A stretch of DNA of 59,105 bases from an uncultured bacterium (GTDB lineage: Bacteria > Methylomirabilota > Methylomirabilia > Methylomirabilales > JACQHM01): contig CAZHST010000014.1 of NCBI GenBank assembly GCA_964535215.1, positions 13,297 through 72,401 of the forward strand. The letters are read 5' to 3'. The translations under genes were made by a program, and so were the position numbers. Each line of letters begins with the position of its first letter. The first letter of the stretch is position 1. The notes below the pieces were generated by a model. The model was not told where the DNA came from. It did no database searches and saw only the letters and a program-made list of their open reading frames with translations. Positions 32,213 through 50,059 of this stretch are shown here, piece after piece.

Positions 32213-33256
32213 TTACCGGTCTTCAAGGCCTTTCGGCTCGGACCCGCCTAAGGGCCTGTTATCCCTCGTGGGGCAACCCCAGCCCCTCACCTCATAGTGG
32301 GTGAGCGCCAACAGGCCAAAGCCCACCCATAAAAGCTCCCGTCCCCTCCGGACCAGGCTGAAGGTCATCGCGGCCTCGGAGGGGAGGGAGAACGCGAGAA
32401 AGATGAGGACGTTCCCTCCTTCCTGGAGGCCAAGGCTCCCCGGGATGAAGAAGGCGGCAGCCTTGGTGAGCGTTGAAAGGGCTTCAATGGCGACGGCCGT
32501 GGAAAGCCTAACGGGTATCCCGAGGAAGGCGAGGAGGAAGTAGACTTCTAAGCTGCCGATCATCCATCCTGAGAAGAAGAAGGTAAACGAGGTCGTGAAG
32601 GACCACCGGTTCTTCAGGTAGAAATCGGCGATCATCCGATCGAGGGAGCCAAGCTCCGCCTCCCGCTTTTCCAAAGGTGGGAGCGAAAGCTTGACAGCCT
32701 TGGTGAGTTTTAAGAGGCCGGAGAAGAGGCCCCGTCGTTGGGCGAGGAGAAAGAGGGCGATGGCCGGGATCCCCGTCGCCGTTAGGGCCATCGAGGCCAC
32801 GATGAAGGGACCCCCGGCCCCCCCTGGGCGGATGGCCATGAGCAATCCTAGGACGATGAAGACCAGATGGGCCATGGCCATAATGGTCTTGGTCACCACC
32901 AGCGAGGCAAGGCCCTGGTCCTGGGGAATCCCCTGCCGGTTCAGGAGATAGGCCTTTAACGGTTCCCCCCCGAGGGAGGCCAGGGGGGTTAGGTAGTTCA
33001 GAGCCTCCCCAGCCATCCTGATGGAAAAGATCGTGGAGGCGGGGATGGAGCGGGCCTTTGTCCCCAGCACACACCTCCACCCGAGAGTGTCAAAGATATA
33101 CACCATGAGGTACGGTGTGAGGAGGATCGGCAACCTCCAGCCCAACCGTTTCAGACGGGAGAAGAGGATGCCTGGGCCTGTCTGGAAGATCAGGAAGGCA
33201 AAGAGGGCAATCCCGATGACCAGGAAGAGTAAGGTGACTTTCTTAGGGGGCCTCAT
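32213..33256 (-). CDS. HpnL-like flippase-like membrane protein (UPF0104 / lysyl-PG synthase TM-region family), copy 1
   Basis: 347 aa, about 8 TM helices. The N-terminus LLFLVIGIALFAFLIFQTGPGILFSRLKRLGWRLPILL is typical of UPF0104. First gene of the long leftward hopanoid operon. Confidence 0.6.
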   Translation of the reverse strand: MRPPKKVTLLFLVIGIALFAFLIFQTGPGILFSRLKRLGWRLPILLTPYLMVYIFDTLGWRCVLGTKARSIPASTIFSIRMAGEALNYLTPLASLGGEPLKAYLLNRQGIPQDQGLASLVVTKTIMAMAHLVFIVLGLLMAIRPGGAGGPFIVASMALTATGIPAIALFLLAQRRGLFSGLLKLTKAVKLSLPPLEKREAELGSLDRMIADFYLKNRWSFTTSFTFFFSGWMIGSLEVYFLLAFLGIPVRLSTAVAIEALSTLTKAAAFFIPGSLGLQEGGNVLIFLAFSLPSEAAMTFSLVRRGRELLWVGFGLLALTHYEVRGWGCPTRDNRPLGGSEPKGLEDR

Positions 33257-33506
33257 CCAAGAATTCCCCCCGAGGAGAGGGCCGTCGTCCCCGAAGGATC
33301 GGGGTGACAGCTCCCGTGATCTCAGAGAAGCTCCAGGGGTGCATCACCGAACACCGATTGTGGTCAATTCTTCGAGAAGTGTCAAGCGAAAAGGGCATCC
33401 GGTGGCGTTGGTCACCCCTTATATAGCATATTGATCAGCGAAGGACAAGCCGTTAAGCACCTCACCCGTAAAGGCGACGGGGAGGGACGTCGGCTGGCAT
33501 TTCCGT

Positions 33507-33535
33507 TTGACAGCTCCGCCGGGCAACGGTATCAT
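33507..33535 (+). promoter_or_regulatory. predicted sigma70-type promoter for the decarboxylase genes
   Basis: TTGACA – 17 nt – TATCAT in a roughly 300 nt intergenic region, about 30–45 nt upstream of the candidate start codons. Confidence 0.35.
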
Positions 33536-33562
33536 AGCGTTCATGGACGGGGCTTGTCGGCC

Positions 33563-34072
33563 ATGACAGGGGAAGACATGCAGGGTGGGGCAAAACGGTT
33601 CGTGGCCCTCCTGGAGGCGGCGGGCTTCAACTTCTTCACAGGGGTCCCCTGTTCCCTCCTTGAAGGCATCCTGGCCGTTCTGGAGAGACACCCCCGCCTC
33701 CCCTACATCCCTGCCGTCCGGGAGGATGCGGCGGTCGGGATGGCGAGTGGAGCGTTCCTGGCCGGGAAACGGCCGGTTGTCCTTATGCAGAATTCCGGTC
33801 TCGGCACATCCTTAAATGCCCTGGTCTCCTTGAACCTCCTCTACAAGATCCCGCTCCTCCTGGTGGTAAGCTGGCGGGGGTATCGGGGGAAGGATGCCCC
33901 TGAACACCTCATCATGGGGGATGTGTCGCCTCGACTTCTGGAGGATCTCAGCCTGCCCTACCTTGCTCTGGACGAGGAGAAGTTGGAGGACGCCCTCTCC
34001 TGGGCGAAAGGGGTGCTGGAGGGGCAGGGGCTCCCGGCAACCTTCCTCGTCCGTCCCGGGGTCTTACGATGA
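33563..34072 (+). CDS. TPP-dependent phosphonopyruvate/sulfopyruvate decarboxylase, alpha subunit (ComD/Ppd N-terminal half)
   Basis: FVALLEAAGFNFFTGVPCSLLEGIL...MQNSGLGTSLNAL is the TPP-enzyme N-terminal (pyrimidine-binding) domain. Start chosen at the internal ATG; an ATG at 33578 is also possible. Confidence 0.65.
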   Translation: MTGEDMQGGAKRFVALLEAAGFNFFTGVPCSLLEGILAVLERHPRLPYIPAVREDAAVGMASGAFLAGKRPVVLMQNSGLGTSLNALVSLNLLYKIPLLLVVSWRGYRGKDAPEHLIMGDVSPRLLEDLSLPYLALDEEKLEDALSWAKGVLEGQGLPATFLVRPGVLR

Positions 34073-34644
34073 CGAGAGCCGAGGCCATCCGACTGATCGT
34101 TTCCCACCTCACCCATGAGCTGGTTGTCCACGCCAACGGGATGATCTGTCGGGAATCCTTCACCGTCCGGGATCGGCCTGAGAATTTCTACATGATCGGG
34201 TCCATGGGGTTGGCCTCCTCCATCGCCTTGGGAGTTGCCCTCTGCCGTCCCGATCGGAGGGTGGTCATCTTCGACGGGGACGGAAACGTCCTGATGAACC
34301 TGGGAGGCGTGGCGATGGTCGGTGCCCTCCAGCCGAAGAACCTGGTCCATGTCGTCTTCGACAATGAGGCTTATGGTTCCACGGGGGGGCAGGCCAGCCT
34401 TTCCAAGCACCTCCCCCTCCAGGAGATCGCAAGGGCTTCCGGCTACCGGTGGGCCGGGCGGGTTGAGGATCAGGAGGCCCTCGTCACGACCGTTCGAAAG
34501 CTTCTCAATTCGGAAGGTCCTTCCTTCCTCCTGGTCAAGGTCTCCCTTCATGAGGAGGAGGGGATCCCGCGGGTCTCCCATCCCCCTGAGGTGATCCGTG
34601 ACCGCTTCATCGCCGCCCTTCAGGGGACCGGCGTTGGGGGTTAG
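34069..34644 (+). CDS. TPP-dependent phosphonopyruvate/sulfopyruvate decarboxylase, beta subunit (ComE/Ppd C-terminal half)
   Basis: GSMGLASSIALGVAL...VIFDGDGNVLMNLG is the TPP diphosphate-binding GDG motif. It overlaps the alpha subunit by 4 nt. Confidence 0.65.
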   Translation: MTRAEAIRLIVSHLTHELVVHANGMICRESFTVRDRPENFYMIGSMGLASSIALGVALCRPDRRVVIFDGDGNVLMNLGGVAMVGALQPKNLVHVVFDNEAYGSTGGQASLSKHLPLQEIARASGYRWAGRVEDQEALVTTVRKLLNSEGPSFLLVKVSLHEEEGIPRVSHPPEVIRDRFIAALQGTGVGG

Positions 34645-34667
34645 GTGTGTTCCCTTACGCGATCCCC

Positions 34668-35660
34668 CTATCCCACCTCTGACCTTATCCGTTTGAGGCC
34701 ATAACGGGCCAGCGTGGCGAGACCTAGGCTGACCCAGAAAAGCTCCCTGCCCCGTCTCACCAAGCTGAACGTCATCCCTGCCTCCATGGGAAGGGAGAAG
34801 CCAAGGAAGATCAGCATATTCCCCCCCTCTTGGGCTCCTAGAGCTCCTGGGATGACGAAGGCTACGGCTTTGGTGAGGACCGAGAGACCTTGGATAGCAA
34901 AGGCCGTCGGAAGGTCCACGGGCAGCTTTAGAAAGGAGAGCAGCAGGTAGACCTCCAGGCTCTGAACCATCCAACCACCCAGGTGGAACCCCCAGGAGAG
35001 GAGAAAGCTTCGGGCATCTTTGGTGTAAAAGGCGGCGATCTGACGGTCCAGGCTCCGGATCCGTTCCTCCCACCGCTGGAGCCGGGTCTTCAGGAAGGTT
35101 ACGGCTCTGGCAGGCAAGAGAAGCCAGGTGAACAGGCCCTGTCGCTGGAGCACAATCAAGAACGCCATGGCGGGGATCCAAGCGAGGATCAGCACGACTG
35201 AAAAGGTGAGGAAGGGGCTCTTTGCCCCTATCTGGTGTATGGCCAGGATGATCCCGATGACGGTGAAGGTCATCTGGGCCAGGGTCATGGCGGTCTTGGT
35301 GACGACGACAGAGGTCAGGCCCTTCTCAAGGGGGATCTCGTGGGATTTTAGCAAATACGCCTTGACCGGCTCGCCTCCAAGGGAGGCTGAGAAGGTCAGG
35401 TAGTTTACGGCCTCACCGGCCGCTCGGATAAGAAAGAGCCTTGAAAACGGGATTGATGCGCCATCCGCCAACGTCACTCTCCACCCCAGGGTAAAGAAGA
35501 AATAACCGAACGCATACGGCAGGAGGAGGAGGGTCAGCTTCCAGCCCAGGGCCCGAAGGTGGAGGGCGATGGTCAAGGGACCGACCCGGTACACGAGGAA
35601 GGCAAACAAGAGAAGGCCGAGGCTTAGCACCAAAACGTTTAGGGTCTTCGTCTTGATCAC
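34668..35660 (-). CDS. HpnL-like flippase-like membrane protein (UPF0104 family), copy 2
   Basis: Paralog of 32213-33256 with the same N-terminal pattern VLSLGLLLFAFLVYRVGPLTIALHLRALGWKL. It overlaps the upstream fusion gene by 4 nt. Confidence 0.6.
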   Translation of the reverse strand: MIKTKTLNVLVLSLGLLLFAFLVYRVGPLTIALHLRALGWKLTLLLLPYAFGYFFFTLGWRVTLADGASIPFSRLFLIRAAGEAVNYLTFSASLGGEPVKAYLLKSHEIPLEKGLTSVVVTKTAMTLAQMTFTVIGIILAIHQIGAKSPFLTFSVVLILAWIPAMAFLIVLQRQGLFTWLLLPARAVTFLKTRLQRWEERIRSLDRQIAAFYTKDARSFLLSWGFHLGGWMVQSLEVYLLLSFLKLPVDLPTAFAIQGLSVLTKAVAFVIPGALGAQEGGNMLIFLGFSLPMEAGMTFSLVRRGRELFWVSLGLATLARYGLKRIRSEVG

Positions 35661-36994
35661 GGCCTTGGTCCTTGGGCTTTCTCGGAGCGCCGACGGGCCT
35701 TAACCCTTCTCCGGAAGGCAGCGTAGAGGACGAGGGGCCAGAAGAGATTTGTCCCGATGGCCCCAACCCAGAAGAACCAGTGGATCTTGTTCACAACCGC
35801 GAGGAGGAGGAAGAGGAGGGAGAAATCCCGGTGTCTGATCGCCTCGACGATCCCCTCAAGCCTTCGATCGAGGTTTTCTGTCTCCCCGGGCCCTCCACTC
35901 CTGGTCTTGGGGCCCATCATGTGGAGGGTAAAGGCCAGACCGGAAAGGAGAGTCCCTCCTATCAACAGGATCCCGAAGGTAAGGACCTGCCAGCTGGGGG
36001 AGCGGAGGTAGACGACCCGGGTGAGACCCGCGAAGATCCCCAGATGGACGGCGTTATCCAGGATGAAGTCCAACCACCCTCCCCCTCGGCTTTCCAGGAA
36101 CTTGATCCGGGCCAGCATCCCGTCCGCTAAGTCCATCACGAAGGAAAGGACGAGGAGAAGGGCCCCTGTCAGGACGCTGGCATACCCAGCCTGCCACAGG
36201 AAGGCGGCGGCCGCTATCCCTGAGAGGAAGCTGAGGAAGGTAAGCTGGTTGGGGGTGGCTTGAGTCTCGACGAGGGCCTTCACCACCAGGGCCGCCACCT
36301 TCCGGGTCTCTCGGATCACGATGGTGTCGGTTGGCTTTCCCAAGGAGCGGTATAACGCCCTCTCGGCTTCGTCAGTCGGGAGGGAAGAGGTGTCAAAGAC
36401 GTAGGCGTATTCGTCTGGGAGGGTCAGAAGGTACTTTCGGTGGTCCTTGAAGGTCAGGAGGAGCTCTTCCCATCCCTTTGGTCCTTCCCGGTCCAGGGCT
36501 TCGGCGATGAGGCGTATGATCCGTGAGGAGACCAGGGCGATCCCGTGATGGCCTTCCGAGGCCCCCCGGGCAGGAATCAGAATGTCCAGATCCTCTTCAA
36601 AGGCGGCGTGCATCCGTTCCAGCACGACGGGGGCAAAGATCGTCCCCCCATCGAGCAGGAACACTGGGGGTCGTTCCTCTTCCAACCACTCCTCTAGGGT
36701 TCCCCCTTGGGGGTGGAGCGGAGGACAGAACCATGAGACCTGGGCCTTGATCCCGGACCTCTCCGCCAGGAGGGTCTGGAGCTTGGGGGTCTCAGGTCCC
36801 GAGAGGACAAGGAACCGGTGAACCCCCGCTCGTTGTGCCGCAAGGATGATCCTGATGAAGACAGGCACCCCGGCTAACGGGTGGAGGGCAGGGGTCCAGT
36901 CCCCTCCTGGGGGGGGAACGATCAGGGCTGAGAGGGTGATCGCTTTCATAGCGCTCTTCCCCGTTCCCGATCCACGGGGTGGGCGTTTGTTCAC
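35657..36994 (-). CDS. bifunctional nucleotidyltransferase-like / CDP-alcohol phosphatidyltransferase fusion protein
   Basis: The N-terminal roughly 230 aa is an NTP-transferase-like fold (LHPLAGVPVFIRII) with a degenerate Gly-rich loop (IVPPPGGDW). The C-terminal membrane domain carries the CDP-OH-P transferase signature DLADGMLAR...GGWLDFILDNAVH (D-G-x2-A-R...G-x3-D-x3-D). Confidence 0.65.
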   Translation of the reverse strand: MNKRPPRGSGTGKSAMKAITLSALIVPPPGGDWTPALHPLAGVPVFIRIILAAQRAGVHRFLVLSGPETPKLQTLLAERSGIKAQVSWFCPPLHPQGGTLEEWLEEERPPVFLLDGGTIFAPVVLERMHAAFEEDLDILIPARGASEGHHGIALVSSRIIRLIAEALDREGPKGWEELLLTFKDHRKYLLTLPDEYAYVFDTSSLPTDEAERALYRSLGKPTDTIVIRETRKVAALVVKALVETQATPNQLTFLSFLSGIAAAAFLWQAGYASVLTGALLLVLSFVMDLADGMLARIKFLESRGGGWLDFILDNAVHLGIFAGLTRVVYLRSPSWQVLTFGILLIGGTLLSGLAFTLHMMGPKTRSGGPGETENLDRRLEGIVEAIRHRDFSLLFLLLAVVNKIHWFFWVGAIGTNLFWPLVLYAAFRRRVKARRRSEKAQGPRP

Positions 36995-37141
36995 CAGGAA
37001 GCAAAGCTGTCATCCTTTGTATCACTGCCGGCCTGAAAAGTAAAGGAGATACCCAGGACAGGGGCTTCAGGGGTCCGGTCTGAGCTGGGGCCTTCATGGC
37101 CACCGCCTGACGCCCCTGGTCGGGGGCCACATCTAAGCCTG

Positions 37142-37170
37142 TTGCGAGAATGGGGGCGGGTTGCTACAAT
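37142..37170 (+). promoter_or_regulatory. predicted sigma70-type promoter for hpnN
   Basis: TTGCGA – 17 nt – TACAAT. AGGGGGGGAA follows, then a GTG at 37204. Confidence 0.35.
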
Positions 37171-37203
37171 CTTTTACCTGAAACGCCGTCAGGGGGGGAA
37201 ATC

Positions 37204-39987
37204 GTGCTGGTCCGGTTCCTAAAGTTCATCTATCGGCATCCGCGAAGTGTCATCGTTGTCTCTCTGGCAGTAGCCGTCGTCTCTGTCCTCTATGCCGCGA
37301 CCCACTTGAGCTTTAAGACCAGCCGCCTTGACCTCGTTTCCTCCAAGGACAGGTATAGCCTGCTCCACCGGGAGCATAGCAGGGAGTTTGAGTCCCTGGA
37401 TCGGATTGTCATTGTGGTTCAAAGCCATCATCCAGAGCGGGCCAAGGCCTTCGCCAGCCTGTTGGGAAGACGGTTGGAGGCGGACAGGGAGGATTTCGAA
37501 AAGGTCTTTTATCGAATCGACATCGAACCCTTGAAAAACAGAGGCCTCCTTTACCTATCCGCTGACGACCTCCTCGCCCTCAGGCGGAAGCTCCAAAGGC
37601 ATGCGGAGCTGATCAGAGACCTGGCCGCCTCCCCCACCCTCCCCGGCCTCTTCTCCCTGATCAATCGGGAGATGACCTCGGCGATGATCAGCCATACCTT
37701 CACCGGTTTCTTGCTGGAGGAGGAGCAGGGGGGGGAAAAGGAACCTGTTGATCTCGGCCTGCTGATCTCCATCCTGAGAGCGATGGACGAGTGGGTTGAG
37801 GGTCAACACGCCTACGTCTCCCCCTGGGAGGCCTTTTTCACCAAGGAGAAGTGGAAGACATCGGAGGATGGGTTCCTCTGGTCAGAGGATAAGACGTTTC
37901 TCTTCCTCCTGGTCACCCCCCGGCAGGTCTCCGGGACCTTCGACCGGTTCAGGAAGGCCGTTGAGCGTGTCCGGCAGGAGGTCCGGGAGCTTCGCAAAGC
38001 TTTTCCAGACCTCGAGGTCGGGGTCACGGGGCAATCGGTCCTGGATTCGGATGAGATGGGGGCGGCCCAGCGGGATACCGCCATGGCGGCTTTGATCTCC
38101 CTCGTAGGGGTCGGGCTTCTCTATTTCGTCATGTTCAGAGGGGTCATGAGACCCCTCTTCGCCCTCGTGACGCTGGTCATTGGTCTGGGCTGGTCCATCG
38201 GCTTCACCGCCCTGACGGTGGGGCATCTGAACATCATCACCATGACCTTTGCGCCGCTTTTGATCGGCCTGGGGATTGATTACGGCAGCTACTTTATCGG
38301 TCGGTACATGGAAGAGAGGATGCCAGGGGTTGGGGTGCCTTTCGTCATGGAGCGGACCACCGCTGCCGTTGGGCCGGGGATAGCGGCGACCGCCCTCATC
38401 ACCGCGTTCTCCTTCTTCACCCTCGTCTTCACCGACTTCAAAGGTCTGGTCGAGCTGGGCTTCATCAGCGGGACCGGCATCCTCCTCATCCTGCTCGCCA
38501 CCTTCACGGTTCTTCCGGCGTTCCTCATCCTCTATGATGGCCGGAGAGGGGCAACCTTCGATCTCCGCGGAATGAGGGGCGGTGAGGCCCGCTCCGGCTA
38601 CCTGGAAGGGCTGTACCGCTATCCGCTGGTCACCCTCTCGGCGAGTGCCCTCCTTGTCCTCCTTTCCCTCGCGTTTCTCGGGAGGGTTGGGGCTGACTTT
38701 AACCTCCTCCACATGCAGGCCGAAGGGACCGAGTCCGTTGTCTGGGAGCTTAAGATCCTGGAGAACGCCAAGCGGTCGGCCTGGTTTGCGGTGAGCGTCG
38801 CCGACTCTCTGGAGGAGGTGAGGCGAAGGGAGAAGGCCTTTAAGGCCCTTCCTTTGGTGGCAGGGGTCCAGAGCCTTGCCTCCCTGATCCCTCAGGACCA
38901 GGAGCGGAAGCTCCGCCTTCTCAAAAGCCTCCGTCCCTTCCTGGCCGATATCCCCATCCCTCAGGTCAAGCCCGGGCCCCTGGACCTGGAGGTCCTCCTG
39001 TCCACCTTGGAGAGGATCAAGTTCAAGATGGTAGAGGATGGTGGCGAAACCTGGGACCCCAGGAAGAGGCCACCCGTGGAGGCGATGCGTGAGGTGCGCC
39101 GCCTCATTGACCAGTTCTTAACATGGGCCAAGCAAACGGAGCCTGAGGAAGTCCATCGGGCCCTTCAAGGGTTCGAGAGGGAGATTTTCGGGGACTTGAA
39201 GGACAAGCTGGATTTCCTGAAACGGGGCCTCGACGCCGGACCGGTAACGCTCCAGACCATTCCCCCTGAGCTTAAGGAGCGCTTCGTGGGCAGGACGGGA
39301 AGGTACCGGGTATTGATCTTTCCCGCCGAGAACATCTGGGAGCCTGAGCACCTGGCGAAGTTCGTCCGGGCGATCAGGGCTGTGGACCCTGATGCCATCG
39401 GTGATCCGGTCCTGGGCTTTGAGCACATGCAGGCGATGAAGACGGCCTACAAGAAAGCCGGGTTGTATTCGGTCGTCGGTCTCCTCCTCCTGGTCTTTCT
39501 CACGTTTAAGGAGGTGAAGGCTTCCCTCTTGGCCCTGATCCCTTTGGTCCTTGGTTCCCTGTGGACCTTAGGCTTCATGGGGGCCTTTCAGGTGAAGTTC
39601 AACCTGGCCAACCTTATCGTCCTCCCCTTGATAGGGGCTCCTGGGATCGAAGGTGGCATCATGGTCCTCACCCGTTACCGCGAGGAGAGGACCACCAGGA
39701 AGCTCCCCCTTCCCCTCCCCAAGAGCACCGGGAGGGCCATGGCGTTCTCGGCCTTGTCCACGATGGTCGGATTCGGGAGCTTGATGATCTCCCGCCATCG
39801 GGGGATTTACAGCATCGGCCTCCTCCTCATGGTTGGGGTGGGGTGTATCCTCCTGGCTTCCGTCACCGCCCTTCCTGCCGTCCTGCGACTCCGCTTATCA
39901 AAGCAGGCGAAGGTTTCGGGGGAGGATCAAGAGATGCCTCAAACCGTTGGGGCCAAGGAAGGAGGCTGGAAAGGCAGGGGGGGGTAA
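37204..39987 (+). CDS. hpnN: hopanoid-associated RND-superfamily (MMPL-like) transporter HpnN
   Basis: About 927 aa with two 6-TM bundles (the sterol-sensing-like GxxxD..., second bundle near 39480-39900) and two large periplasmic loops. GTG start after the RBS; the upstream ATG at 37150 lies inside the predicted promoter. Confidence 0.7.
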   Translation: MLVRFLKFIYRHPRSVIVVSLAVAVVSVLYAATHLSFKTSRLDLVSSKDRYSLLHREHSREFESLDRIVIVVQSHHPERAKAFASLLGRRLEADREDFEKVFYRIDIEPLKNRGLLYLSADDLLALRRKLQRHAELIRDLAASPTLPGLFSLINREMTSAMISHTFTGFLLEEEQGGEKEPVDLGLLISILRAMDEWVEGQHAYVSPWEAFFTKEKWKTSEDGFLWSEDKTFLFLLVTPRQVSGTFDRFRKAVERVRQEVRELRKAFPDLEVGVTGQSVLDSDEMGAAQRDTAMAALISLVGVGLLYFVMFRGVMRPLFALVTLVIGLGWSIGFTALTVGHLNIITMTFAPLLIGLGIDYGSYFIGRYMEERMPGVGVPFVMERTTAAVGPGIAATALITAFSFFTLVFTDFKGLVELGFISGTGILLILLATFTVLPAFLILYDGRRGATFDLRGMRGGEARSGYLEGLYRYPLVTLSASALLVLLSLAFLGRVGADFNLLHMQAEGTESVVWELKILENAKRSAWFAVSVADSLEEVRRREKAFKALPLVAGVQSLASLIPQDQERKLRLLKSLRPFLADIPIPQVKPGPLDLEVLLSTLERIKFKMVEDGGETWDPRKRPPVEAMREVRRLIDQFLTWAKQTEPEEVHRALQGFEREIFGDLKDKLDFLKRGLDAGPVTLQTIPPELKERFVGRTGRYRVLIFPAENIWEPEHLAKFVRAIRAVDPDAIGDPVLGFEHMQAMKTAYKKAGLYSVVGLLLLVFLTFKEVKASLLALIPLVLGSLWTLGFMGAFQVKFNLANLIVLPLIGAPGIEGGIMVLTRYREERTTRKLPLPLPKSTGRAMAFSALSTMVGFGSLMISRHRGIYSIGLLLMVGVGCILLASVTALPAVLRLRLSKQAKVSGEDQEMPQTVGAKEGGWKGRGG

Positions 39988-40776: not shown

Positions 40777-41094
40777 CTCCCAAAGCTTAGAGACCTGTCA
40801 GGGGGGTCCCATCTTATGTACCACGGTTTTGCCGAAAAGCAAGGAAAAAATCCCGGGTCGAGGATCGGAGGCGTTTGACAAACCCCCGGGCCTACGCTAT
40901 CATGCTCCCCGATCTCCAGTCCCATGGCATTTTTTGAACCATGGGGCCCCAGCCGACGTATCTGGAGGGAGGGAACAATCTGGGAAGAGGTGGTGTTCTG
41001 TAAGGGAGGGGTGGGTCAGCCTGGGAGGCCCATGGAGGGGGAGCGAGCCGGTGGGATTTATCATCGGGGTCCCTGGTTCCGAAAGGAGGGTTCG

Positions 41095-42501: not shown

Positions 42502-42561
42502 GGGGAAGGCAACGGGGGAGGCGTGGCTCCGGGAACACGGGGAGAGAGGAGGTTTTTGAGG

Positions 42562-43197
42562 ATGGGACGACGATGGGGGCACACCAAGAGGATGGCTTGG
42601 GCAGGGTCCTGGTTGGGGATCCTCTTCCTGGCTCAAGGGTTCCTTTCCACCGCCGTGGCCGGGGAACCCTTGGAACAGGTCAAGGCAACCCTGGAGGCTG
42701 CTTCGGCGATCCTGGGGGACCCGAAGCTTGCTGGGCCGGAAAAGGAGGAGGAGCGGAGGGAGGCGGTCAAGAAGATCATCTTCGATCGCTTTGATCTTCG
42801 GGAGATGGCGGCCCGCTCCCTGGGGGATCAGTGGGCCAAGCTGACCCCATCCCAACAGGAGGAGTTTGTCCAGGTCTTTGGCGACCTCTTCCAAAGGTCC
42901 TACACCCGCCTGGTGCTCAGGTTTCTCCCGGAAAGGCGGACCCTTTATGGGCAGGAGAGGCTGGATGGGTCAACGGCCCTGGTGAAAACGACCCTGGTCA
43001 GTCAGCGGAACGAGCGGTTGCCGGTTGATTACCGACTCATCAAGAAGGGGCCCCGGTGGGCCTTTTTCGACGTGATCATTGATGGGGTCAGCATCGTTGG
43101 GAACTATCGAACCCAGTTCAGCAAAATTATCCGAAACTCCTCCTATGAGAGCCTCGTCCGCCGCATGAAACTCAAACAGGAACAGGAGTCCTTTTAG
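42562..43197 (+). CDS. MlaC/Ttg2D-family lipid-binding periplasmic protein (HpnM-like)
   Basis: Signal peptide, then IIFDRFDLREMAARSLGDQWAKLTPSQQEEFVQVF...FFDVIIDGVSIVGNYRTQF, the toluene-tolerance Ttg2D/MlaC fold. Next to the hpnN/TolC genes. Confidence 0.65.
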   Translation: MGRRWGHTKRMAWAGSWLGILFLAQGFLSTAVAGEPLEQVKATLEAASAILGDPKLAGPEKEEERREAVKKIIFDRFDLREMAARSLGDQWAKLTPSQQEEFVQVFGDLFQRSYTRLVLRFLPERRTLYGQERLDGSTALVKTTLVSQRNERLPVDYRLIKKGPRWAFFDVIIDGVSIVGNYRTQFSKIIRNSSYESLVRRMKLKQEQESF

Positions 43198-43240: not shown

Positions 43241-44470
43241 TTACCGCTCCCGGTAGAAGATCAGCAACACGCCGAAGGCGATCACCAGGAACCGCCAGAG
43301 GAGCTTGGGGATGGAGGAACCAGGGTCCCGGTCCCAGAGGAGCTTTGTTCCCCCGATGAGGATGGCCAGGAGGCCCATCGCGGCGTGTTGGAGATAGATC
43401 TTGAAGCCGGAAAGGCCCCAGGTGAGCTGCTGGGTGATGAAGGCGAAAAGGTGTCCAGACTTACCGTGGCCCCCATGAGAGACCAGGAGGGCCCCTGAGA
43501 CAATGGCCAGACCAGGGAAGAGGTAACCCCAGGCCGGGTGGAGGAGCCATCCCTCCTTCCTGAAAAGCTCGATCAACCCGATGGCCAACATGGCGAGGCC
43601 GAGGACCTTATGCTGCCAGACCGAGGGGATGGCCAACCCTTCCAGGAGGGGGATCGGGCCTAGCGGCCAGACCTGCGGGTCACTCCGGACGAGGACCCAG
43701 AGGCTTAAGCCGATGGCTCCAAGGGGCCAGAGGGATTTCAGCCAGCGACGGCCCGGGAGGAAGACCTCAATCACGGCCAGGATCCCGACCAGCAGGAGGA
43801 GGAACCCCGAGGAGCGGTGGTTAAACTCGGAGAACGCAATCTGCCCCGGGGTCCGTTGCCAGCCCCCGTGCTCGTGGCCTCCTCCCGGGAGGCCCTCGCT
43901 CCCCCCATAGGAGGCGAGGAACGGGTTGGTCTCCGCGAAAAGGCCGCTCGGGTTGGGGAACCAGGCCCAGACGTGGAGACTCCAGAGACTGGGATGCCAG
44001 ACTTCGAAGGGAGCTCCCGTTTTGGGATGGGTCTTTGGGCAGAGATCGGCGGCGGAGGCTTCCTCCTCGCTCCCGTCAGCGTAATGACAACTGGCTTTAT
44101 GCCGGAACCAGGGAGCCCTGGGAAAGAAGGTGCGGGGAGGGGTTGGGCCTCCGGCCACGTACTCCACGCCGGCCAACTGCCATTGACCCCTCTCCTCCAC
44201 GTAGAGGAGCATCTGGGGCCGGGTGAGGTCGAAGTCGGTGATGGAAGGGTTGAAGTAGTGATAGCCATGGAGGCGGATCATGCCGGTCATCTGGCGGTAC
44301 CCATGCTTCCTGGCCTGATCGATGTCGAGGAACTGGATGGTCGCCGTGCGGATCTGGGCGACGATCTGGCTCAGATCCCCTTCAGCAGCCTGGCCGGGGA
44401 GCACCCCCCAGACCAAGCCCCCGACGATCAAGCCCCCAAGCCAGCGCTTCATTTCGTTCCTCCTTTCCAT
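43241..44470 (-). CDS. membrane protein of unknown function (N-terminal periplasmic domain + C-terminal polytopic domain)
   Basis: 409 aa. Signal or anchor helix, about 200 aa soluble region, then about 6 TM helices with His/Gly-rich loops (HGGHGKSGH). Confidence 0.4.
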   Translation of the reverse strand: MERRNEMKRWLGGLIVGGLVWGVLPGQAAEGDLSQIVAQIRTATIQFLDIDQARKHGYRQMTGMIRLHGYHYFNPSITDFDLTRPQMLLYVEERGQWQLAGVEYVAGGPTPPRTFFPRAPWFRHKASCHYADGSEEEASAADLCPKTHPKTGAPFEVWHPSLWSLHVWAWFPNPSGLFAETNPFLASYGGSEGLPGGGHEHGGWQRTPGQIAFSEFNHRSSGFLLLLVGILAVIEVFLPGRRWLKSLWPLGAIGLSLWVLVRSDPQVWPLGPIPLLEGLAIPSVWQHKVLGLAMLAIGLIELFRKEGWLLHPAWGYLFPGLAIVSGALLVSHGGHGKSGHLFAFITQQLTWGLSGFKIYLQHAAMGLLAILIGGTKLLWDRDPGSSIPKLLWRFLVIAFGVLLIFYRER

Positions 44471-44962: not shown

Positions 44963-45050
44963 TCCGGACCTTCCTCCTCCCGGCTTCGGACCTCATCACG
45001 CTCCTTAAGGGGCAGACAGGTTTCCCTTACCTTGGAGAGGACATGGCAGA

Positions 45051-46373: not shown

Positions 46374-46390
46374 GCCACCCGGAGGGGGAA

Positions 46391-47506: not shown

Positions 47507-48294
47507 ACCCCTCGGTGTTCGGGAAGCGAATCCTCCTGCTCATCCCCCACCCGGACGACGAGGTGGTGGGGTGCTCGGCAGCGGTAGGGCGGGCGCGAGT
47601 CCAGGGGGCGGAGATTTTTGGGTTTTACCTGACCACGGGGGTCCCGCCTCGGGAGGCGCTCTGGTGGTGGCAGCGGAGAGGCTACCCACGTCTCGTCGAG
47701 CGACGCCGAAAGGAGGCCGAGCAGGTGGCGGCGCTCCTCGGGATCGAGGCCGTCGAGTTCCAGGAGATCCCCTCCCGGACGTTAAAAAGCTTTCTCGGTC
47801 CAACCCGGGAGAAGCTCATCAGGGCAATTCGGGGGCATCAGATCGACACCCTCTGGGCTCCGACCTACGAGGGGGGGCACCAGGATCACGATGCCGCCAG
47901 CTTCCTCTCGAGTACGCTTAAAGGCTCCGTCCAGGTCTGGGAGTTCAGCGAGTACCACTACTTCGGGGGAAGGGTGCGGTGTCACGAATTTTTCGCCCCC
48001 AACGGGACAGAATGGGTTCTTCTCCTGGACGACGGGGAGCGGGAGGTGAAGCGGAAGGCCCTCGCCCTTTACCGGTCGGAACGGAAGAACCTTCGGCACA
48101 TCGAGATTGCCCGCGAGGCCTTCCGCCCGTTGGCCAGCTACGACTACCGTCAGCCCCCGTATCGGGGAAAGCTGTTCTACCAGCGCTTTCAATGGGTTCC
48201 GGCCCATCCCCGGATCGATCCCTGTCGGCCTGAAGCCGTGTGTCAGGCCTTTGACCGCTTCATGTTAGAGGGGGGAGACCGGGGAGAGGGATAG
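47503..48294 (+). CDS. PIG-L/LmbE family N-acetylglucosaminyl deacetylase
   Basis: LLIPHPDDEVVGCSAAV zinc-binding motif. 4-nt overlap with the radical SAM gene. Confidence 0.75.
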   Translation: MNPSVFGKRILLLIPHPDDEVVGCSAAVGRARVQGAEIFGFYLTTGVPPREALWWWQRRGYPRLVERRRKEAEQVAALLGIEAVEFQEIPSRTLKSFLGPTREKLIRAIRGHQIDTLWAPTYEGGHQDHDAASFLSSTLKGSVQVWEFSEYHYFGGRVRCHEFFAPNGTEWVLLLDDGEREVKRKALALYRSERKNLRHIEIAREAFRPLASYDYRQPPYRGKLFYQRFQWVPAHPRIDPCRPEAVCQAFDRFMLEGGDRGEG

Positions 48295-48322
48295 GCCGGT
48301 CAACCTCTTCACCAGAGGCGCT

Positions 48323-50059
48323 CTATTCCTTGATCTCGGCCCAAGCCCGCTGGTAGTCCTCGAAGGTGTTGATCTCCATCCAGCCTTTGTAGATCTCGAC
48401 ACAGGAGACCTTGACCCCTTCGTCGATCATCGCCTGAAGGAGGTCGGTCAACGAGGCCTTCTCGATGGATTCAGCCTCATAGAACCTCTGATGCCGGTAT
48501 CGGTCCAGGGCCCGTCGGTAGGCTTCTTTGAGGCTTTGAGCCCCTTTCTCCGAGAACATCGCCATGCCGATGAACTCCCCGTGGGCCTCGTCAGGGTCGA
48601 TGTCATGACCGATCCTGACCACGGTGTTTTCCCCTTCAGGGGGAAGGAAGCGGTAACCATGAACCGGGGGGGTTTTCATCACGACCAGGGCCGGCTTTGC
48701 CTTGTACGTCGGAGGGTCGATGCCGTCCCGACGATTATGGTACCAGGCCCGATCCACGGCCAGCACGATGTCCCCTTTGCTCTTCAAGAGCTTCTCCAAG
48801 ACCCCCCGGTCAAAGATGATGTCCCCGTAAAGGAAGATAAAACGACCCTCGATCTCAGGTTCAGCGCAGAAGAGAGAATACAGGATGTGGGTTTCCTGGA
48901 ACCGGTCATTCTCATAGTAGCGGATATTTGGGTAATCGATGCTTTCCTTCTTATACCCCCGGACAACGGCGATCTCCTTGATGGAACACTCGTTGAGCCT
49001 GGCGATCTGGCGCTCCAGGATGGTTTTCCCTTTGATGTCCAGCATCGTCTTGGGCCGGTCCTTGATCAGCGGGAGGAGTTCCTTCTCGAATCCGGCCGCG
49101 AGGATGATGGCCTTAACCTTCTCCGCGCCCACGGGGAGGAACCGTTCTTCCCGATCTTTTAGCTCACTCACCCCTACCAGGTCGTAGACCTTTTCCAAAG
49201 GGACGATCCGGGCGGAGACGGCCTCCGCCGAGCCTTTCTCCTTCAAGAGGTGGAGGGTCTCCTCCATGGCCTTGATGGCCGCCCGGATGGCCTGATTGGC
49301 GAAGATGACGACCTTGAACCCCGACTCCTGAAGCTCCTCCAGGGTCACCGAGGGGAACAGGGTCGGAACGACAACCAGGGGTGCGGTTCCACTCCAGACC
49401 CTGGCGAACTCGCGAAGCTCGTGGAAAGAGCTGGCCTTGGAGTGGACGAGGATGGCGTCAGCGCCGGCCTCAGCGTACGCCTTGGCCCTCTTCAAGGCCT
49501 CTTCCATCCCCCAGCCGGCGATCAACGCCTCGGTCCTGGCAATGATCACAAAATCCCCCGTTCTCTGGACCTCCTTGGCCGCCCTGATCTTTCCGACATG
49601 TTCCTCGATGGAGACAAGCTCCCGGCGGACTCCCGGGTAAAAGCTACACCGCTTTGGAAAGACGTTGTCCTCGATGCAGATCCCTGCAATTCCCGCCGCT
49701 TCGAACTCGATGGTGGTCCGCATGACGTTGATGGCGTTGCCATACCCATCATCGCAATCGGCGATGACAGGAATCGAGACGGCCTGATTGATCTTCTTGA
49801 CGATCTCCAGGTTCTCGGTCATGGTTAAAAGCCCCGCGTCGGGGAGACCCATCTGGGCTGTGGAGATCCCGAAGCTCGAGGTCCAGACCGCATCAAAGCC
49901 GGCCCGCTCGATGAGTTTGGCACTGATGGCATCATGGGCCCCGGCCACCAAGATCATCCCAGGCCGTCGCAGGAGCTCTCGGAGCCTGATGGTTTTCTGC
50001 ACGGGTGAAGACCTCCTTCTGGCCAACGAAGCGGACGAACCCTCCGAGGTGACCCACAA
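48323..50059 (-). CDS. bifunctional phosphoenolpyruvate phosphomutase (PepM) / nucleotidyltransferase fusion
   Basis: The N-terminal roughly 300 aa (ILVAGAHDAISAKLIERAGFDAVWTSSFGIS...IADCDDGYG...GICIEDNVFPKRCSF) matches the PEP mutase branch of the ICL/PEPM family (EDKxFPKxNS-type, no KKCGH). The C-terminal roughly 250 aa is an NTP-transferase (KAIILAAGFEKELLPLIKDRPKTMLDIKGKTILE). Confidence 0.8.
   Translation of the reverse strand: MWVTSEGSSASLARRRSSPVQKTIRLRELLRRPGMILVAGAHDAISAKLIERAGFDAVWTSSFGISTAQMGLPDAGLLTMTENLEIVKKINQAVSIPVIADCDDGYGNAINVMRTTIEFEAAGIAGICIEDNVFPKRCSFYPGVRRELVSIEEHVGKIRAAKEVQRTGDFVIIARTEALIAGWGMEEALKRAKAYAEAGADAILVHSKASSFHELREFARVWSGTAPLVVVPTLFPSVTLEELQESGFKVVIFANQAIRAAIKAMEETLHLLKEKGSAEAVSARIVPLEKVYDLVGVSELKDREERFLPVGAEKVKAIILAAGFEKELLPLIKDRPKTMLDIKGKTILERQIARLNECSIKEIAVVRGYKKESIDYPNIRYYENDRFQETHILYSLFCAEPEIEGRFIFLYGDIIFDRGVLEKLLKSKGDIVLAVDRAWYHNRRDGIDPPTYKAKPALVVMKTPPVHGYRFLPPEGENTVVRIGHDIDPDEAHGEFIGMAMFSEKGAQSLKEAYRRALDRYRHQRFYEAESIEKASLTDLLQAMIDEGVKVSCVEIYKGWMEINTFEDYQRAWAEIKE

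Follow-up and report, generated by a model that had tools for sequence, protein, structure and literature searches.

A phosphonate module among hopanoid genes of an NC10 bacterium points to a possible, undescribed hopanoid-phosphonate lipid

Gene clusters of the "Group 1 phosphonolipid" or "Burkholderiales_CDP-OH" family have been catalogued, and their lipid product has never been chemically solved (PMC8942020, PMC5987646). No phosphonoglycerolipid was detected in this family although the genes are expressed (PMC8942020). The sequence analysed here, the window, is a stretch of 59,105 nt from contig CAZHST010000014.1 of an NC10 (Methylomirabilota) bacterium, and it holds a variant of this predicted module set among hopanoid (hpn) genes. 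On evidence that is entirely genomic, this combination points to an undescribed hopanoid-phosphonate lipid, and a hopanoid acceptor is the leading, if tentative, reading. An earlier note on this DNA had suggested that such a lipid would be new. Indeed, no phosphorus-containing hopanoid was found in the searched literature, recent broad LC-MS surveys included, a result that also counts against the hopanoid reading; the claim of novelty does not extend to the module, which was already catalogued, or to the general idea, as hints of a "terpene-phosphonate" or "phosphonoterpene" are in print (PMC8776678, PMC8942020).

Profile and family scores placed all four proposed pathway elements, and the flanking hpnH, hpnN, TolC-like gene and hpnM, where the earlier note had them (Table 1). 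Upstream of the module lies a full hopanoid core (hpnD, hpnG, shc, FPPS and hpnA) in the order hpnD, DUF6282, hpnG, shc, PF04240, FPP synthase, a 293-aa gene, hpnA, DUF3187 and hpnH. HpnL-like gene 1 opens a minus-strand operon in which hpnH follows after 8 bp. The hpnN gene is divergent from the CDP-OH transferase gene, as is the tolC-like gene from the stand-alone nucleotidyltransferase (NTase) gene. Synteny extends to two other NC10 contigs (protein identities of 57% and 36%), so a chance origin is implausible.

Table 1. Features of the window with their positions, strands and supporting matches
Feature	Position	Strand	Evidence or remark
Hopanoid core genes, hpnD through hpnH	21732..32204	- (DUF6282 gene +)	
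HpnL-like membrane protein 1 (LPG_synthase_TM, flippase-like)	32213..33256	-	TIGR03476 181.0, cut-off 195.65
Divergent promoter-like region	33357..33535		between HpnL-like 1 and ppdA; consensus matches only
Ppd-type TPP enzyme, alpha (N-terminal) subunit	33563..34072	+	TPP_enzyme_N
Ppd-type TPP enzyme, beta (C-terminal) subunit	34069..34644	+	TPP_enzyme_C
HpnL-like flippase-like membrane protein 2	34668..35660	-	TIGR03476 155.3
CDP-alcohol phosphotransferase, N-terminal degenerate NTase-like domain	35657..36994	-	CDP-OH_P_transf, motif, AF2 fold
HpnN, RND-type hopanoid transporter	37150..39987	+	TIGR03480 629.5, cut-off 751.85, still best match
Stand-alone LicC/PntC-like cytidylyltransferase	40036..40776	-	NTP_transferase, canonical AAGRATRL loop
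TolC-like outer-membrane efflux protein	40924..42501	+	PF02321 OEP
HpnM (MlaC-like periplasmic lipid-binding protein)	42523..43197	+	PF05494 MlaC, TIGR03481 HpnM
409-aa membrane protein	43241..44470	-	signal peptide, beta-rich His/Cys-rich domain, six-helix CopD-like domain
GT4 glycosyltransferase	45051-46373	+	
Radical SAM enzyme	about 46391-47506	+	
PIG-L deacetylase	47503-48294	+	
AepX-like PepM–NTase fusion	48323..50059	-	PF13714 PEP_mutase, then NTP_transf_3/NTP_transferase

Together the four elements make up a coherent make-activate-transfer pathway, as had been proposed, with a Ppd-type decarboxylase, LicC/PntC-like cytidylyltransferases and an intact CDP-OH motif. The PepM-like domain would convert PEP to phosphonopyruvate, and the split TPP decarboxylase, assigned by family, would form phosphonoacetaldehyde and thereby draw the unfavourable mutase reaction forward. 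The aldehyde would go on to 2-aminoethylphosphonate by amination or to 2-hydroxyethylphosphonate by reduction, through an enzyme not present in the window, and a LicC/PntC-type cytidylyltransferase (fused, stand-alone or both) would activate it to the CMP-phosphonate. The membrane CDP-alcohol phosphotransferase would then move the phosphonyl-alcohol from CMP to a lipid hydroxyl; gene linkage suggests that this may belong to the side chain of bacteriohopanetetrol or another HpnH/HpnG polyol. The two HpnL-like, MprF-flippase-like proteins may carry the product across the inner membrane, and HpnN, HpnM and the TolC-like protein may take it onward to the outer membrane.

The decarboxylase is Ppd-type by its family scores. 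Its genes overlap by 4 bp, and the start at 33563, Met45 of an ORF open from 33431, agrees with homologue lengths of 161-165 aa. Joined, the subunits pass the Ppd model TIGR03297 (318.2 vs a cut-off of 312.5, positions 1-358 of 360), bearing out the earlier assignment to Ppd rather than ComDE. A sulfopyruvate decarboxylase is rejected, as the ComD score (122.5, cut-off 147.95) and the ComE score of the beta subunit (176.3 vs 193.7 for Ppd; ComE cut-off 221.5) both fall short. The earlier note had seen neither a PhnW-like transaminase nor an alcohol dehydrogenase, and ORF scans and a tblastn search of the whole window with a Nitrospira AEP transaminase agree; the lack of a transaminase or reductase for the aldehyde in the window counts against the hopanoid reading, and with no transaminase present the organism's head group could be either 2-aminoethylphosphonate or 2-hydroxyethylphosphonate.

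The CDP-alcohol phosphotransferase is proposed as the putative head-group transferase. A profile search places CDP-OH_P_transf at residues 247-358, and 12 homologues all keep the motif D288-x2-D291-G292-x2-A295-R296-x8-G305-x3-D309-x3-D313 unchanged. An AF2 model (pLDDT 68.5) resembles the IPCT-DIPPS fusion 4mnd in its entirety, as well as AF2299, while its N-terminal part gives weak matches to GlmU/RmlA/IspD folds. This domain reads PPPGGDW and is best called NTase-like but degenerate because the GxGxR signature is missing. The stand-alone NTase, also reported before, is canonical; it reads AAGRATRLHPL, and among solved structures LicC is the nearest relative, with PntC 6pd1 also matched. In L002, L091 and Nitrospira L004 its gene immediately precedes that of the CDP-OH transferase. 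The two HpnL-like paralogues (54% mutual identity) do flank the module as described, but they belong to the phosphonate module itself and are not separate hopanoid genes. An orthologue of the first is present in the Nitrospira, Roseomonas and Mycetohabitans modules, and the gene of the second overlaps the transferase gene by 4 bp. HpnL has no established function (PMC12324291, PMC12583986), which we count in favour of the hopanoid reading.

Other genes and sites accompany the module. The gene of the 409-aa membrane protein does so in NC10-like lineages only. The GT4–radical SAM–PIG-L block is kept in L001 and stops 28 bp short of the PepM fusion; it may stand in for HpnI/J/K as a non-orthologous analogue. 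Promoter-like -10/-35 sites, all of them consensus matches only, precede HpnL-like 1 (33385-33357, minus strand), ppdA (33507-33535, plus strand) and the tolC-like gene (TTGACA-17-TATCAT at 40875-40903); seven such sites were observed vs 2.6 +/- 1.5 in shuffles, and the ppdA and tolC-like sites each have 11/12 consensus matches with partly shared spacers.

Linkage to hopanoid genes recurs in other genomes. Phosphonate genes are co-operonic with hpnH, hpnG or hpnM, and at least seven different gene orders of this kind occur among NC10, Rokubacteria, Nitrospirales, Roseomonas and Mycetohabitans. Besides the window these include hpnG overlapping the NTase gene by 1 nt with the CDP-OH transferase next (L002), hpnH-ppdA-ppdB-AEPT with gaps of 3-35 bp (L080), module-PF04240-hpnA-hpnG-shc (L012) and, in three Rokubacteria loci (L053, L078, L086), hpnM directly upstream of the PepM fusion and ppdAB. 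Outside NC10 the linkage involves both window-type PepM and canonical aepX, the latter lying between hpnH/ispH and FPPS/hpnN in Roseomonas and adjoining dxs-hpnN-hpnM-like-ispH-hpnH-hpnA in Mycetohabitans. In 11 of the 80 species-level loci hpn genes lie within 10 kb of the module, for which a naive binomial (p = 0.0125) gives P = 5.5e-9, a significance overstated by the phylogenetic non-independence of the loci. The expected linkage in relatives is seen in NC10 and other phyla and fails elsewhere: most Nitrospiraceae loci, B. cenocepacia and Cupriavidus have no hpn genes within 10-20 kb of the module, which counts against the hopanoid reading.

The chemistry of the first step has to be weighed separately. 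In the fusion, a PEP-mutase-family domain (residues ~20-312; PF13714 at 216 bits over residues 26-270) precedes a LicC/PntC-like NTase (~314-578; profile match from residue 316), of which LicC 1jyk is the best solved relative and PntC 6pd1 a further match; the TTG at 50059 probably lies upstream of the real start. The fusion reported earlier is therefore real, but a standard PEP mutase motif is not present: the variant gating loop reads EDNVFPKRCS, without the Ppm-specific EDKX5NS. The earlier note had held that loss of PepM active-site residues would speak against its reading. Alignment to PepM (5unc, 1m1b) and PPH (2dua) structures gives K116N and N122C, with the Mg- and phosphoryl-binding residues retained (D58, D85, D87, E114, K120, S123, R159 and H190). 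These two changes, the missed TIGR02320 equivalog (281.7 bits, cut-off 319.55) and the grade position of N..CS sequences allow another chemistry, for example a C-C lyase or hydrolase-type reaction on an oxo-acid, with the module then building a non-phosphonate CDP-activated head group. The grade position comes from a rough NJ tree, drawn without support values, in which the N..CS sequences fall between canonical PepMs and methylisocitrate-lyase-like sequences. The Cys aligns with the catalytic Cys of isocitrate/methylisocitrate lyases, whose loop KRCGH resembles KRCS. The hydrolase PPH is as similar to PepM as PepMs are to one another, differing mainly at this loop position (PMC7916636); Binatia and Thermodesulfobacteriota have the fusion with no nearby Ppd; and the best NCBIfam matches of the NTase and transferase are IPCT/DIPPS. 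Against this, the retained H190 and R159 are phosphoryl-binding residues typical of PepM/PPH rather than of lyases, the domain shares 48% identity with a bona fide PepM, and a phosphate-based head group would need a supplying alcohol kinase or inositol-phosphate synthase, families with no match among ~55 scanned window ORFs. Ppd-type decarboxylase genes adjoin the PepM-type gene in ~55/80 loci, as do AEP transaminase genes in Nitrospira, Rokubacteria and others (363.1 vs a PhnW-AepZ cut-off of 360.8 in a related Nitrospira module); both enzymes require phosphonopyruvate, which can come from nothing but the variant PepM because none of 83 loci holds a second PepM-like gene. We consider a non-mutase improbable. 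Since the domain fails the Ppm motif, we infer mutase activity from gene context rather than residues, and the variant group probably represents an active mutase clade that has been overlooked. Cys-Ser is retained in 203/203 relatives examined, with N/S/A at the third motif position, and equivalog-grade Ppd and AEP transaminase genes lie beside this variant.

With the pathway unchanged to CMP-phosphonate, the acceptor may instead be diacylglycerol or another glycerolipid, yielding an ordinary phosphonolipid analogous to phosphatidylethanolamine; hpn proximity would then reflect joint outer-membrane remodelling, with regulation and the HpnN/HpnM/TolC route perhaps in common. CDP-alcohol phosphotransferases usually use diacylglycerol or soluble polyol phosphates as acceptors. 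We know of no member that uses a hopanoid, which counts against the hopanoid reading. The prevailing prediction for Group 1 clusters is a glycerolipid (PMC8942020, PMC5987646), the closest solved structures to the transferase are DIPPS, AF2299 and PIP synthases, the modules noted above stand away from hpn genes, and the 8.7-kb contig of L091, a compact operon, carries no hopanoid gene. Yet such lipids went undetected in the best-studied carriers, and the operons with hpnH, hpnG and hpnM are tighter than co-regulation usually requires. To our knowledge, the module carriers of known lipid phenotype are hopanoid producers. Nitrospirales are documented as such (PMC10579370). A glycerolipid acceptor is thus somewhat unlikely. 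In a further scheme, likened to PIP synthase with its CDP-diacylglycerol donor, the stand-alone NTase would convert a hopanoid phosphate (for example, HpnG-released ribosylhopane phosphate) to a CDP-hopanoid, whose lipid phosphate the transferase would couple to a soluble alcohol. The hpnG overlap in L002, the PIP synthases among the structural matches and the similarity of the NTase to sugar-1-phosphate nucleotidyltransferases are suggestive, but the NTase-transferase pair also occurs in modules with no nearby hpnG, the NTase is nearest to LicC/PntC, enzymes of small phospho-/phosphono-amines, and PepM-Ppd would have no role unless the acceptor were hydroxyethylphosphonate. This scheme is very improbable.

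Of the earlier interpretation, the pathway and the hopanoid linkage are supported, and the PepM motif and the status of the HpnL-like genes need changing; the module itself is a variant of a known cluster family. The fusion is co-linear with annotated aepX (33-36% identity), the catalytic core of the transferase shares 44% identity with the Mycetohabitans Group 1 CDP-OH transferase across 93 residues, and the stand-alone NTase is the counterpart of the 'second PntC' found in Group 1 clusters. Our tentative reading, which we put a little short of an even chance, is that the window holds the AepX/AepY "phosphonolipid" module in its NC10 form within an hpn locus, its most likely product being a phosphonate-headed bacteriohopanepolyol.

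Pfam and NCBIfam scans of the long ORFs show that a single unbroken lipid locus occupies the window between about 21.7 and 50.1 kb. The closest database proteins carry NC10 or Methylomirabilales labels, which places the window in that phylum. The profile scans found each of the four elements that the earlier note had read as a phosphonate head-group module, together with the hopanoid genes flanking them. The locus includes shc, the side-chain genes hpnH and hpnG, and the accessory genes hpnA, hpnD, hpnN and hpnM. The shc product matches PF13243 and PF13249 at 527 and 423 bits, HpnH (384.5), HpnA (489) and HpnD (327.9) score past their cut-offs, and HpnG, HpnN and HpnM are best matches that each fall below the cut-off. 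The minus-strand operon from HpnL-like 1 to hpnG has intergenic gaps of -139 to +14 bp.

Features of the lipid locus and of the left end of the window, by position
Feature	Position	Strand	Remark
CHASE2-adenylate/guanylate cyclase-PilZ protein, then Na/Pi cotransporter-PhoU fusion	51-3790	+	left window end
hpnD			further upstream of operon
DUF6282 (amidohydrolase-like) gene	22898-23749	+	further upstream of operon; between hpnD and hpnG, opposite strand
hpnG		-	operon
shc		-	operon
PF04240 gene	26457-27314	-	operon
FPP synthase gene		-	operon
293-aa multi-pass membrane protein	28196-29077	-	operon
hpnA		-	operon
DUF3187 protein	30118-31296	-	operon
hpnH		-	operon
HpnL-like 1	32213-33256	-	operon
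TTGACA-17-TATCAT	33507-33535	+	upstream of ppdA
ppdA (decarboxylase alpha)	33563-34072	+	first of the alternating-strand genes beyond the operon
ppdB (decarboxylase beta)	34069-34644	+	
HpnL-like 2	34668-35660	-	4-bp overlap with CDP-OH transferase
CDP-OH transferase	35657-36994	-	
hpnN		+	between CDP-OH transferase and stand-alone nucleotidyltransferase
Stand-alone nucleotidyltransferase	40036-40776	-	
TTGACA-17-TATCAT	40875-40903	+	upstream of TolC-like gene/hpnM
TolC-like gene, hpnM		+	after stand-alone nucleotidyltransferase
409-aa membrane protein		-	no assigned family; between hpnM and GT4 gene
GT4, radical SAM, PIG-L deacetylase	45051-48294	+	one tight operon; radical SAM about 46391-47506
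PepM-nucleotidyltransferase fusion	48323-50059	-	
radA (housekeeping)			beyond the fusion; boundary of lipid locus

Several other features of the locus were observed. The longest ORF of the DUF6282 gene starts at 22703, overlapping hpnD, and so its true start is probably later. The 293-aa membrane protein and the DUF3187 protein, embedded in the hpnH-to-shc part of the operon, are both kept in the NC10 locus L001, and the DUF3187 protein is also found in L012, from an unclassified MAG. The 409-aa membrane protein has distant homologues without linkage to the phosphonate module. The two promoter-like sites each have 11/12 matches and partly identical spacers (CGTTTGACA..CC.C.GG.C.ACG.TATCAT), which hints at shared regulation of ppdA and the TolC-like gene/hpnM. 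No Rfam or tRNA matches were found between 32 and 50 kb of the window, and the genes at its left end are unrelated to the phosphonate/hopanoid locus.

The linkage of the phosphonate module to hopanoid genes is not particular to this genome. One genome per GTDB species was scanned with a family alignment and with peptide patterns from the variant PepM family, and the best 80 loci were kept and searched by tblastn with the window proteins; flanks were 10 kb, so that "unlinked" means not within 10 kb. Genes of the hpn set lie within 10 kb in 11 of these best 80 species-level loci. Under a naive binomial with 1.25% per locus this has a probability of 5.5e-9, but the loci are related and the real weight therefore lies on the seven or so different gene orders.

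Arrangements in which the phosphonate module and hopanoid genes are linked
Locus	Source	Arrangement
Window	NC10	HpnL-like 1 ends 8 bp before hpnH
L001	NC10	transferase 57% identical; layout as in window
L002	Methylomirabilales (36% identical)	hpnH, small gene, hpnG overlapping nucleotidyltransferase by 1 nt, transferase, unassigned gene, ppdAB, HpnL-like, hpnA, FPPS, hpnD-like
L053, L078, L086	Rokubacteria	hpnD-hpnA..hpnH-PF04240-shc..hpnM-fusion-ppdAB-(transaminase)-nucleotidyltransferase
L012	unclassified MAG	fusion-ppdAB-HpnL-transferase-nucleotidyltransferase-PF04240-hpnA-hpnG-shc
L080	MAG labelled Planctomycetia	hpnH-ppdA-ppdB-transaminase, co-directional, gaps 3-35 bp; then hpnA, hpnG
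L007-L009, L014, L016, L023	Nitrospirales	FPPS and hpnA 5-8 kb from fusion; PF04240 too except L023
L087	Roseomonas marmotae	canonical aepX module between hpnH/ispH and polyprenyl synthetase/MMPL, inside hpnA-GT-hpnC-hpnD-hpnE-shc-hpnG-hpnH
L088	Mycetohabitans	seven-gene Group 1 core, then dxs, two unassigned genes, MMPL, MlaC-like binding protein, ispH, hpnH, hpnA

The neighbourhood comparison proposed in the earlier note thus gives a divided answer: hopanoid linkage recurs in several phyla, but it is not universal. No hpn gene was found within 10-20 kb of the module in most Nitrospiraceae loci, in B. cenocepacia or in Cupriavidus, nor on an 8.7-kb contig carrying a compact NC10-like operon. 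As Nitrospirales encode shc and hpnH (PMC10579370), a hopanoid acceptor is possible there as well. In most Nitrospiraceae the module consists of the fusion, two small genes, ppdAB, a class-V aminotransferase, a nucleotidyltransferase, a 475-aa CDP-OH transferase of the extended type and an HpnL-like gene. The Nitrospira aminotransferase scores 363.1 against the curated AEP aminotransferase cut-off of 360.8, and an AEP transaminase is also present in the module versions of L053 (Rokubacteria) and L080 (the MAG labelled Planctomycetia). The two small genes (194 and 202 aa, no Pfam match; 8711-9916 in locus L004) always lie between ppdA and the PepM fusion.

Two further sets of genes in the locus may bear on hopanoid modification. 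The PF04240 gene ('carotenoid biosynthesis protein', CruF-like) lies beside shc or hpnA in the hopanoid-linked loci of NC10, Rokubacteria and Nitrospirales (with the exception of L023), including L001, L002 and L012. Its position suggests that it may encode an unrecognised hopanoid-modifying enzyme. The GT4, radical SAM and PIG-L trio, next to the hopanoid genes and kept in L001, corresponds in its chemistry to HpnI, HpnK and HpnJ (GlcNAc transfer, deacetylation and radical ring contraction to the BHT cyclitol ether), although the families are unrelated. By analogy, the trio may provide composite hopanoids by a non-orthologous route.

Two other readings of the downstream enzymes were considered. 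A decarboxylase of this type could act on sulfopyruvate, as ComDE does, and ppdA or ppdB taken singly is indeed ambiguous between Ppd and ComDE profiles. The TIGR03297 Ppd model describes a single chain and the window Ppd is a split gene; when alpha and beta were joined in silico, they scored 318.2 against the Ppd cut-off of 312.5 and covered profile positions 1-358 of 360. The ComDE profiles (TIGR03845/TIGR03846) were missed by both subunits, alpha with 122.5-123.7 (cut-off 147.95) and beta with 173.7-176.3 (cut-off 221.5). The profile scores thus do not support membership of ComDE, which the earlier note had named, together with a PepM-like domain lacking its active-site residues, as a result that would refute its reading. 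The second reading, di-myo-inositol-phosphate or phosphoinositol synthesis, is suggested by the NCBIfam best matches of the nucleotidyltransferase and the CDP-OH transferase. The AF2 model of the transferase (445 aa) can also be superposed from end to end on AF2299 and on the IPCT-DIPPS fusion of Archaeoglobus. Nevertheless, the scores are about one tenth of the cut-offs (for IPCT-DIPPS, NF041135, 59 bits against 580), the N-terminal domain is degenerate, the gene partners are phosphonate enzymes, and no match to the inositol-1-phosphate synthase family was found among the scanned window ORFs. We rejected both readings, the second as a claim of family membership.

For both nucleotidyltransferases the closest solved relative is LicC, the pneumococcal phosphocholine cytidylyltransferase, and the Treponema PntC 6pd1 is also matched (stand-alone enzyme: 1jyk E = 8.8e-16, 6pd1 5.7e-9; fused domain: 1jyk 6.7e-13, 6pd1 1.6e-5). 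The fused domain has AAGFEK at the position of LicC's AAGLGTR. The CDP-OH transferase carries the complete motif of the CDP-alcohol phosphotransferases (PF01066), D-x2-D-G-x2-A-R-x8-G-x3-D-x3-D, and its residues D288, D291, G292, A295, R296, G305, D309 and D313 are invariant across 12 homologues. In the AF2 model, of which the pLDDT is only 68.5, the six-helix membrane domain gives Foldseek matches to 4mnd, 4q7c and 4o6n (E = 2.5e-10 to 1e-9). The N-terminal 200 residues of this moderate-confidence model give weak fold matches to GlmU, RmlA and IspD and have no GxGxR nucleotide-binding signature. The description "nucleotidyltransferase-like" in the earlier note is therefore right as to the fold, but the domain has lost its signature and is probably not catalytic. 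A separate canonical nucleotidyltransferase gene accompanies the extended transferase in every lineage. A search of the window bore out that it has neither an AEP transaminase nor an alcohol dehydrogenase, and it also found no 2OG-Fe(II) oxygenase. In L002, a Methylomirabilales locus without a transaminase, two zinc alcohol dehydrogenase genes (17264-19329) follow the hpnD-like gene, beside the hpn genes; they are candidates for the reduction of phosphonoacetaldehyde to hydroxyethylphosphonate.

The PepM domain is of a non-canonical kind. Residues 26-270 of the fusion have the ICL/PEP-mutase superfamily fold (PF13714, 216 bits), and the best solved relative is the Streptomyces PepM 5unc (290 bits, 48% identity), with 43% identity to phosphonopyruvate hydrolase and 37% to Mytilus PepM. 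In alignments with 1m1b and 5unc the domain retains the metal ligands D58, D85, D87 and E114 (Mg), K120 and S123, and the phosphoryl binders R159 and H190 (Mytilus numbering). Its gating loop reads EDNVFPKRCS, as against EDK-x5-NS in PepMs and EDK-x5-TS in the hydrolase; two changes, K116N and N122C, take it outside the Ppm-specific motif EDKX5NS. It also scores 281.7 bits, under the cut-off of 319.55, with the TIGR02320 equivalog. The identification of this domain as PepM was thus borne out for the fold and for the metal and phosphoryl ligands but not for the diagnostic motif and the equivalog cut-off. EDKX5NS divides Ppm from other superfamily members in both large inventories of phosphonate biosynthesis (PMC6697681, PMC8942020), and those inventories would therefore have discarded the window protein. 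In the work on Ppm-PntC fusions (Rice et al. 2019, PMC6697681), 22 fusions without the motif were discarded, and the window protein would belong among them.

The altered loop is widespread. All of the 120 closest database homologues (120/120), which are fusions of about 555 aa, 60-76% identical and from Nitrospirota, Thermodesulfobacteriota and NC10, have an ED[N/S/A]xxPK[R/K]CS loop, as do 83/83 of the genomic loci recovered. Representatives of 50%-identity clusters were searched exhaustively and the best 150 classified: 84 have the canonical K..NS loop, 24 have N/S/Y..CS (ED(N/S/Y)-x4-K-x-CS), 15 have N..NS (EDN-x5-NS), seven have the methylisocitrate-lyase-like Q..CG, and in 20 the loop is of another kind or the motif was not found. 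In a rough neighbour-joining tree, calculated without support values, N..CS and N..NS branch as a grade, with the lyase-like outgroup on one side and the canonical clade on the other. Judged by its sequences, the variant PepM forms a sizeable branch of its own within the PepM/PPH group. A substantial share of the PepM/PPH branch is lost to the widely used EDKX5NS filter, and counts of phosphonate producers that rely on the motif may therefore be too low.

The chemistry of this branch is not readable from the residues alone. Its gene partners are informative: a ppdA/ppdB-type decarboxylase is present in the window locus and adjoins the fusion in about 55 of the best 80 related loci, and 95% of the window fusion aligns co-linearly with aepX as annotated in Roseomonas and Burkholderiaceae. 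No second, canonical PepM-like gene was found in the 83 loci or in the window. As Ppd and AEP transaminase need phosphonopyruvate, the variant PepM is the only candidate source of it. We think that the variant domain is a mutase, to judge from this context. The fusion contexts in Binatia and Thermodesulfobacteriota, PmbA/TldD and an RNase T-GIY-YIG gene, are uninformative. In the Binatia locus L061 a 429-aa protein with weak squalene-hopene-cyclase-type repeats (11448-12737) directly follows a stand-alone PepM fusion, which has no Ppd within 10 kb.

The family assignments, intact catalytic motifs and gene linkage are observed features of the locus; from homology and synteny we infer the catalytic activities, the acceptor and the transport roles in the following pathway. 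The PepM domain would convert PEP to phosphonopyruvate and the split Ppd would decarboxylate this to phosphonoacetaldehyde, which an enzyme encoded outside the window would turn into AEP or hydroxyethylphosphonate. A LicC/PntC-type nucleotidyltransferase would then form the CMP-phosphonate, and the CDP-alcohol phosphotransferase would transfer the phosphonate to a lipid hydroxyl. The HpnL-like proteins are predicted to flip the product, and HpnN, HpnM and the TolC-like protein to export it. We consider it very probable that the module makes and transfers a phosphonate and, if it does, we see an even chance that the acceptor is a bacteriohopanepolyol. We know of no CDP-alcohol phosphotransferase that acts on a hopanoid. 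No description of a phosphorus-containing hopanoid was found in the literature, and none is reported in recent broad LC-MS surveys of bacteriohopanepolyols; the earlier note's remark that a phosphono-hopanoid is undescribed agrees with this, but the module itself was already catalogued as a cluster family. The "35-ethenolamine-BHT" of PMC12583986 was considered as a trace of the predicted lipid, its formula being AEP-BHT minus H3PO2; no sensible fragmentation of this kind is known, and the match is treated as a coincidence.

Taken further, the data lead us to speculate on three linked points, which are tentative and, as a set, somewhat less than an even bet. At least six lineages (NC10, Rokubacteria, Nitrospirota and Alpha-, Beta- and Gammaproteobacteria) may make a bacteriohopanepolyol esterified with a phosphonate such as AEP by a dedicated CDP-alcohol phosphotransferase and flipped by HpnL. 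This would give HpnL a function, and would be the reason why the commonest ppm family has no known lipid product. The PEP-mutase clade with ED(N/S/A)xxPK(R/K)CS in place of EDKX5NS may be catalytically active, in which case phosphonate biosynthesis would have escaped EDKX5NS-filtered surveys among nitrite oxidisers, NC10 methanotrophs and their relatives.

The hopanoid literature to late 2025 lists HpnL as of unknown function and sees no other candidates for side-chain genes in the surroundings of hpn clusters (PMC12324291, PMC12583986). Li and Horsman (PMC8942020) describe Burkholderiales_CDP-OH as the largest ppm neighbourhood family; it corresponds to the Group 1 phosphonolipids of Yu et al. 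(2013, in the summary given there). Although it is the most abundant ppm family, no lipid product has been identified and no phosphonolipid characterised from it (PMC8942020). The unsolved role of HpnL and the unsolved Group 1 lipid product here come down to one set of genes: HpnL recurs as a conserved part of the phosphonate/CDP-alcohol module, which is itself repeatedly built into hpn operons. The idea of a terpene-phosphonate is already in print, three times and only in passing: a "possible phosphonoterpene" in Nitrosococcus (PMC8942020; antiSMASH call in PMC7285500) and an "undiscovered terpene-phosphonate" in Acetobacteraceae in general (PMC8776678). What is new is the recognition of HpnL as a member of the module, the operon-level interleaving of phosphonate and hopanoid genes in several phyla, and a large PepM clade without the diagnostic motif yet in bona fide AEP gene sets. 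Both questions can be tested together, and the prediction can be checked directly by lipidomics. Such a lipid, should it exist, would be a zwitterionic outer-membrane hopanoid, resistant to phosphatases, of nitrite-dependent methanotrophs, Nitrospira and Burkholderia relatives, groups of environmental importance, and a new potential biomarker and sink of reduced phosphorus.

Eukaryotic phosphonolipid synthesis of the Kennedy type joins CMP-AEP to diacylglycerol through choline/ethanolamine phosphotransferases. The proposed pathway shares its logic, in which a CMP-activated phosphonate is passed to a lipid hydroxyl by a CDP-alcohol phosphotransferase, but CEPT1 matches only marginally (E = 0.5), and a hopanoid polyol is proposed as the acceptor in place of diacylglycerol. 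In both structure and sequence the window transferase is matched best by IPCT-DIPPS and AF2299 of Archaeoglobus fulgidus (4mnd, 4o6m), with which it shares a cytosolic domain of nucleotidyltransferase fold and, after it, a six-helix transferase carrying DxxDGxxAR...GxxxDxxxD. It differs from them in an identity of about 20%, an N-terminal domain without the nucleotide-binding signature, and phosphonate gene partners. HpnI, HpnK and HpnJ, which make the composite head groups BHT-glucosamine and BHT cyclitol ether (table in PMC12324291), are a precedent for hpn-locus enzymes that attach head groups to the BHT side chain, although they use glycosyl rather than phosphonyl transfer and belong to families unrelated to the window module. 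The two HpnL-like proteins match LPG_synthase_TM (PF03706), which they share with MprF, but have no attached synthase domain. Their best NCBIfam match is HpnL (TIGR03476), at 181.0 and 155.3 bits under the cut-off of 195.65.

The closest known systems are the AepX fusions and the Group 1 clusters. Like AepX, the window fusion has a PEP mutase with a PF12804 nucleotidyltransferase behind it (33-36% identity across 95% of the length; PMC6697681), but it fails the EDKX5NS filter that defines Ppm there. The Group 1 core has seven genes: a Ppm-PntC fusion, Ppd, AEP transaminase, 2OG-Fe oxygenase, a second PntC and two phospholipid-type genes (PMC8942020), the last two being named as CDP-alcohol phosphatidyltransferase and hpnL in the Nostoc paper (PMC5987646). 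The Group 1 examples from Roseomonas (L087) and Mycetohabitans (L088) align gene for gene with the window module, and across 93 residues the core of the window transferase shares 44% identity with the enzyme of the Mycetohabitans cluster. Compared with Group 1, the window has Ppd split in two genes and HpnL duplicated, a transferase of 445 aa with an extra degenerate nucleotidyltransferase-like domain instead of 200-231 aa, and the PepM loop EDNVFPKRCS instead of EDK(L/Q)FPKTNS; its module genes are dispersed in five transcription units among hpn genes, whereas those of Group 1 form one block. With the Ppm-cytidylyltransferase fusion, Ppd, second PntC, CDP-OH transferase and HpnL-like gene, the window has 5/7 of the Group 1 core genes and lacks the transaminase and the oxygenase, and it is thus a variant of the catalogued Burkholderiales_CDP-OH cluster type.
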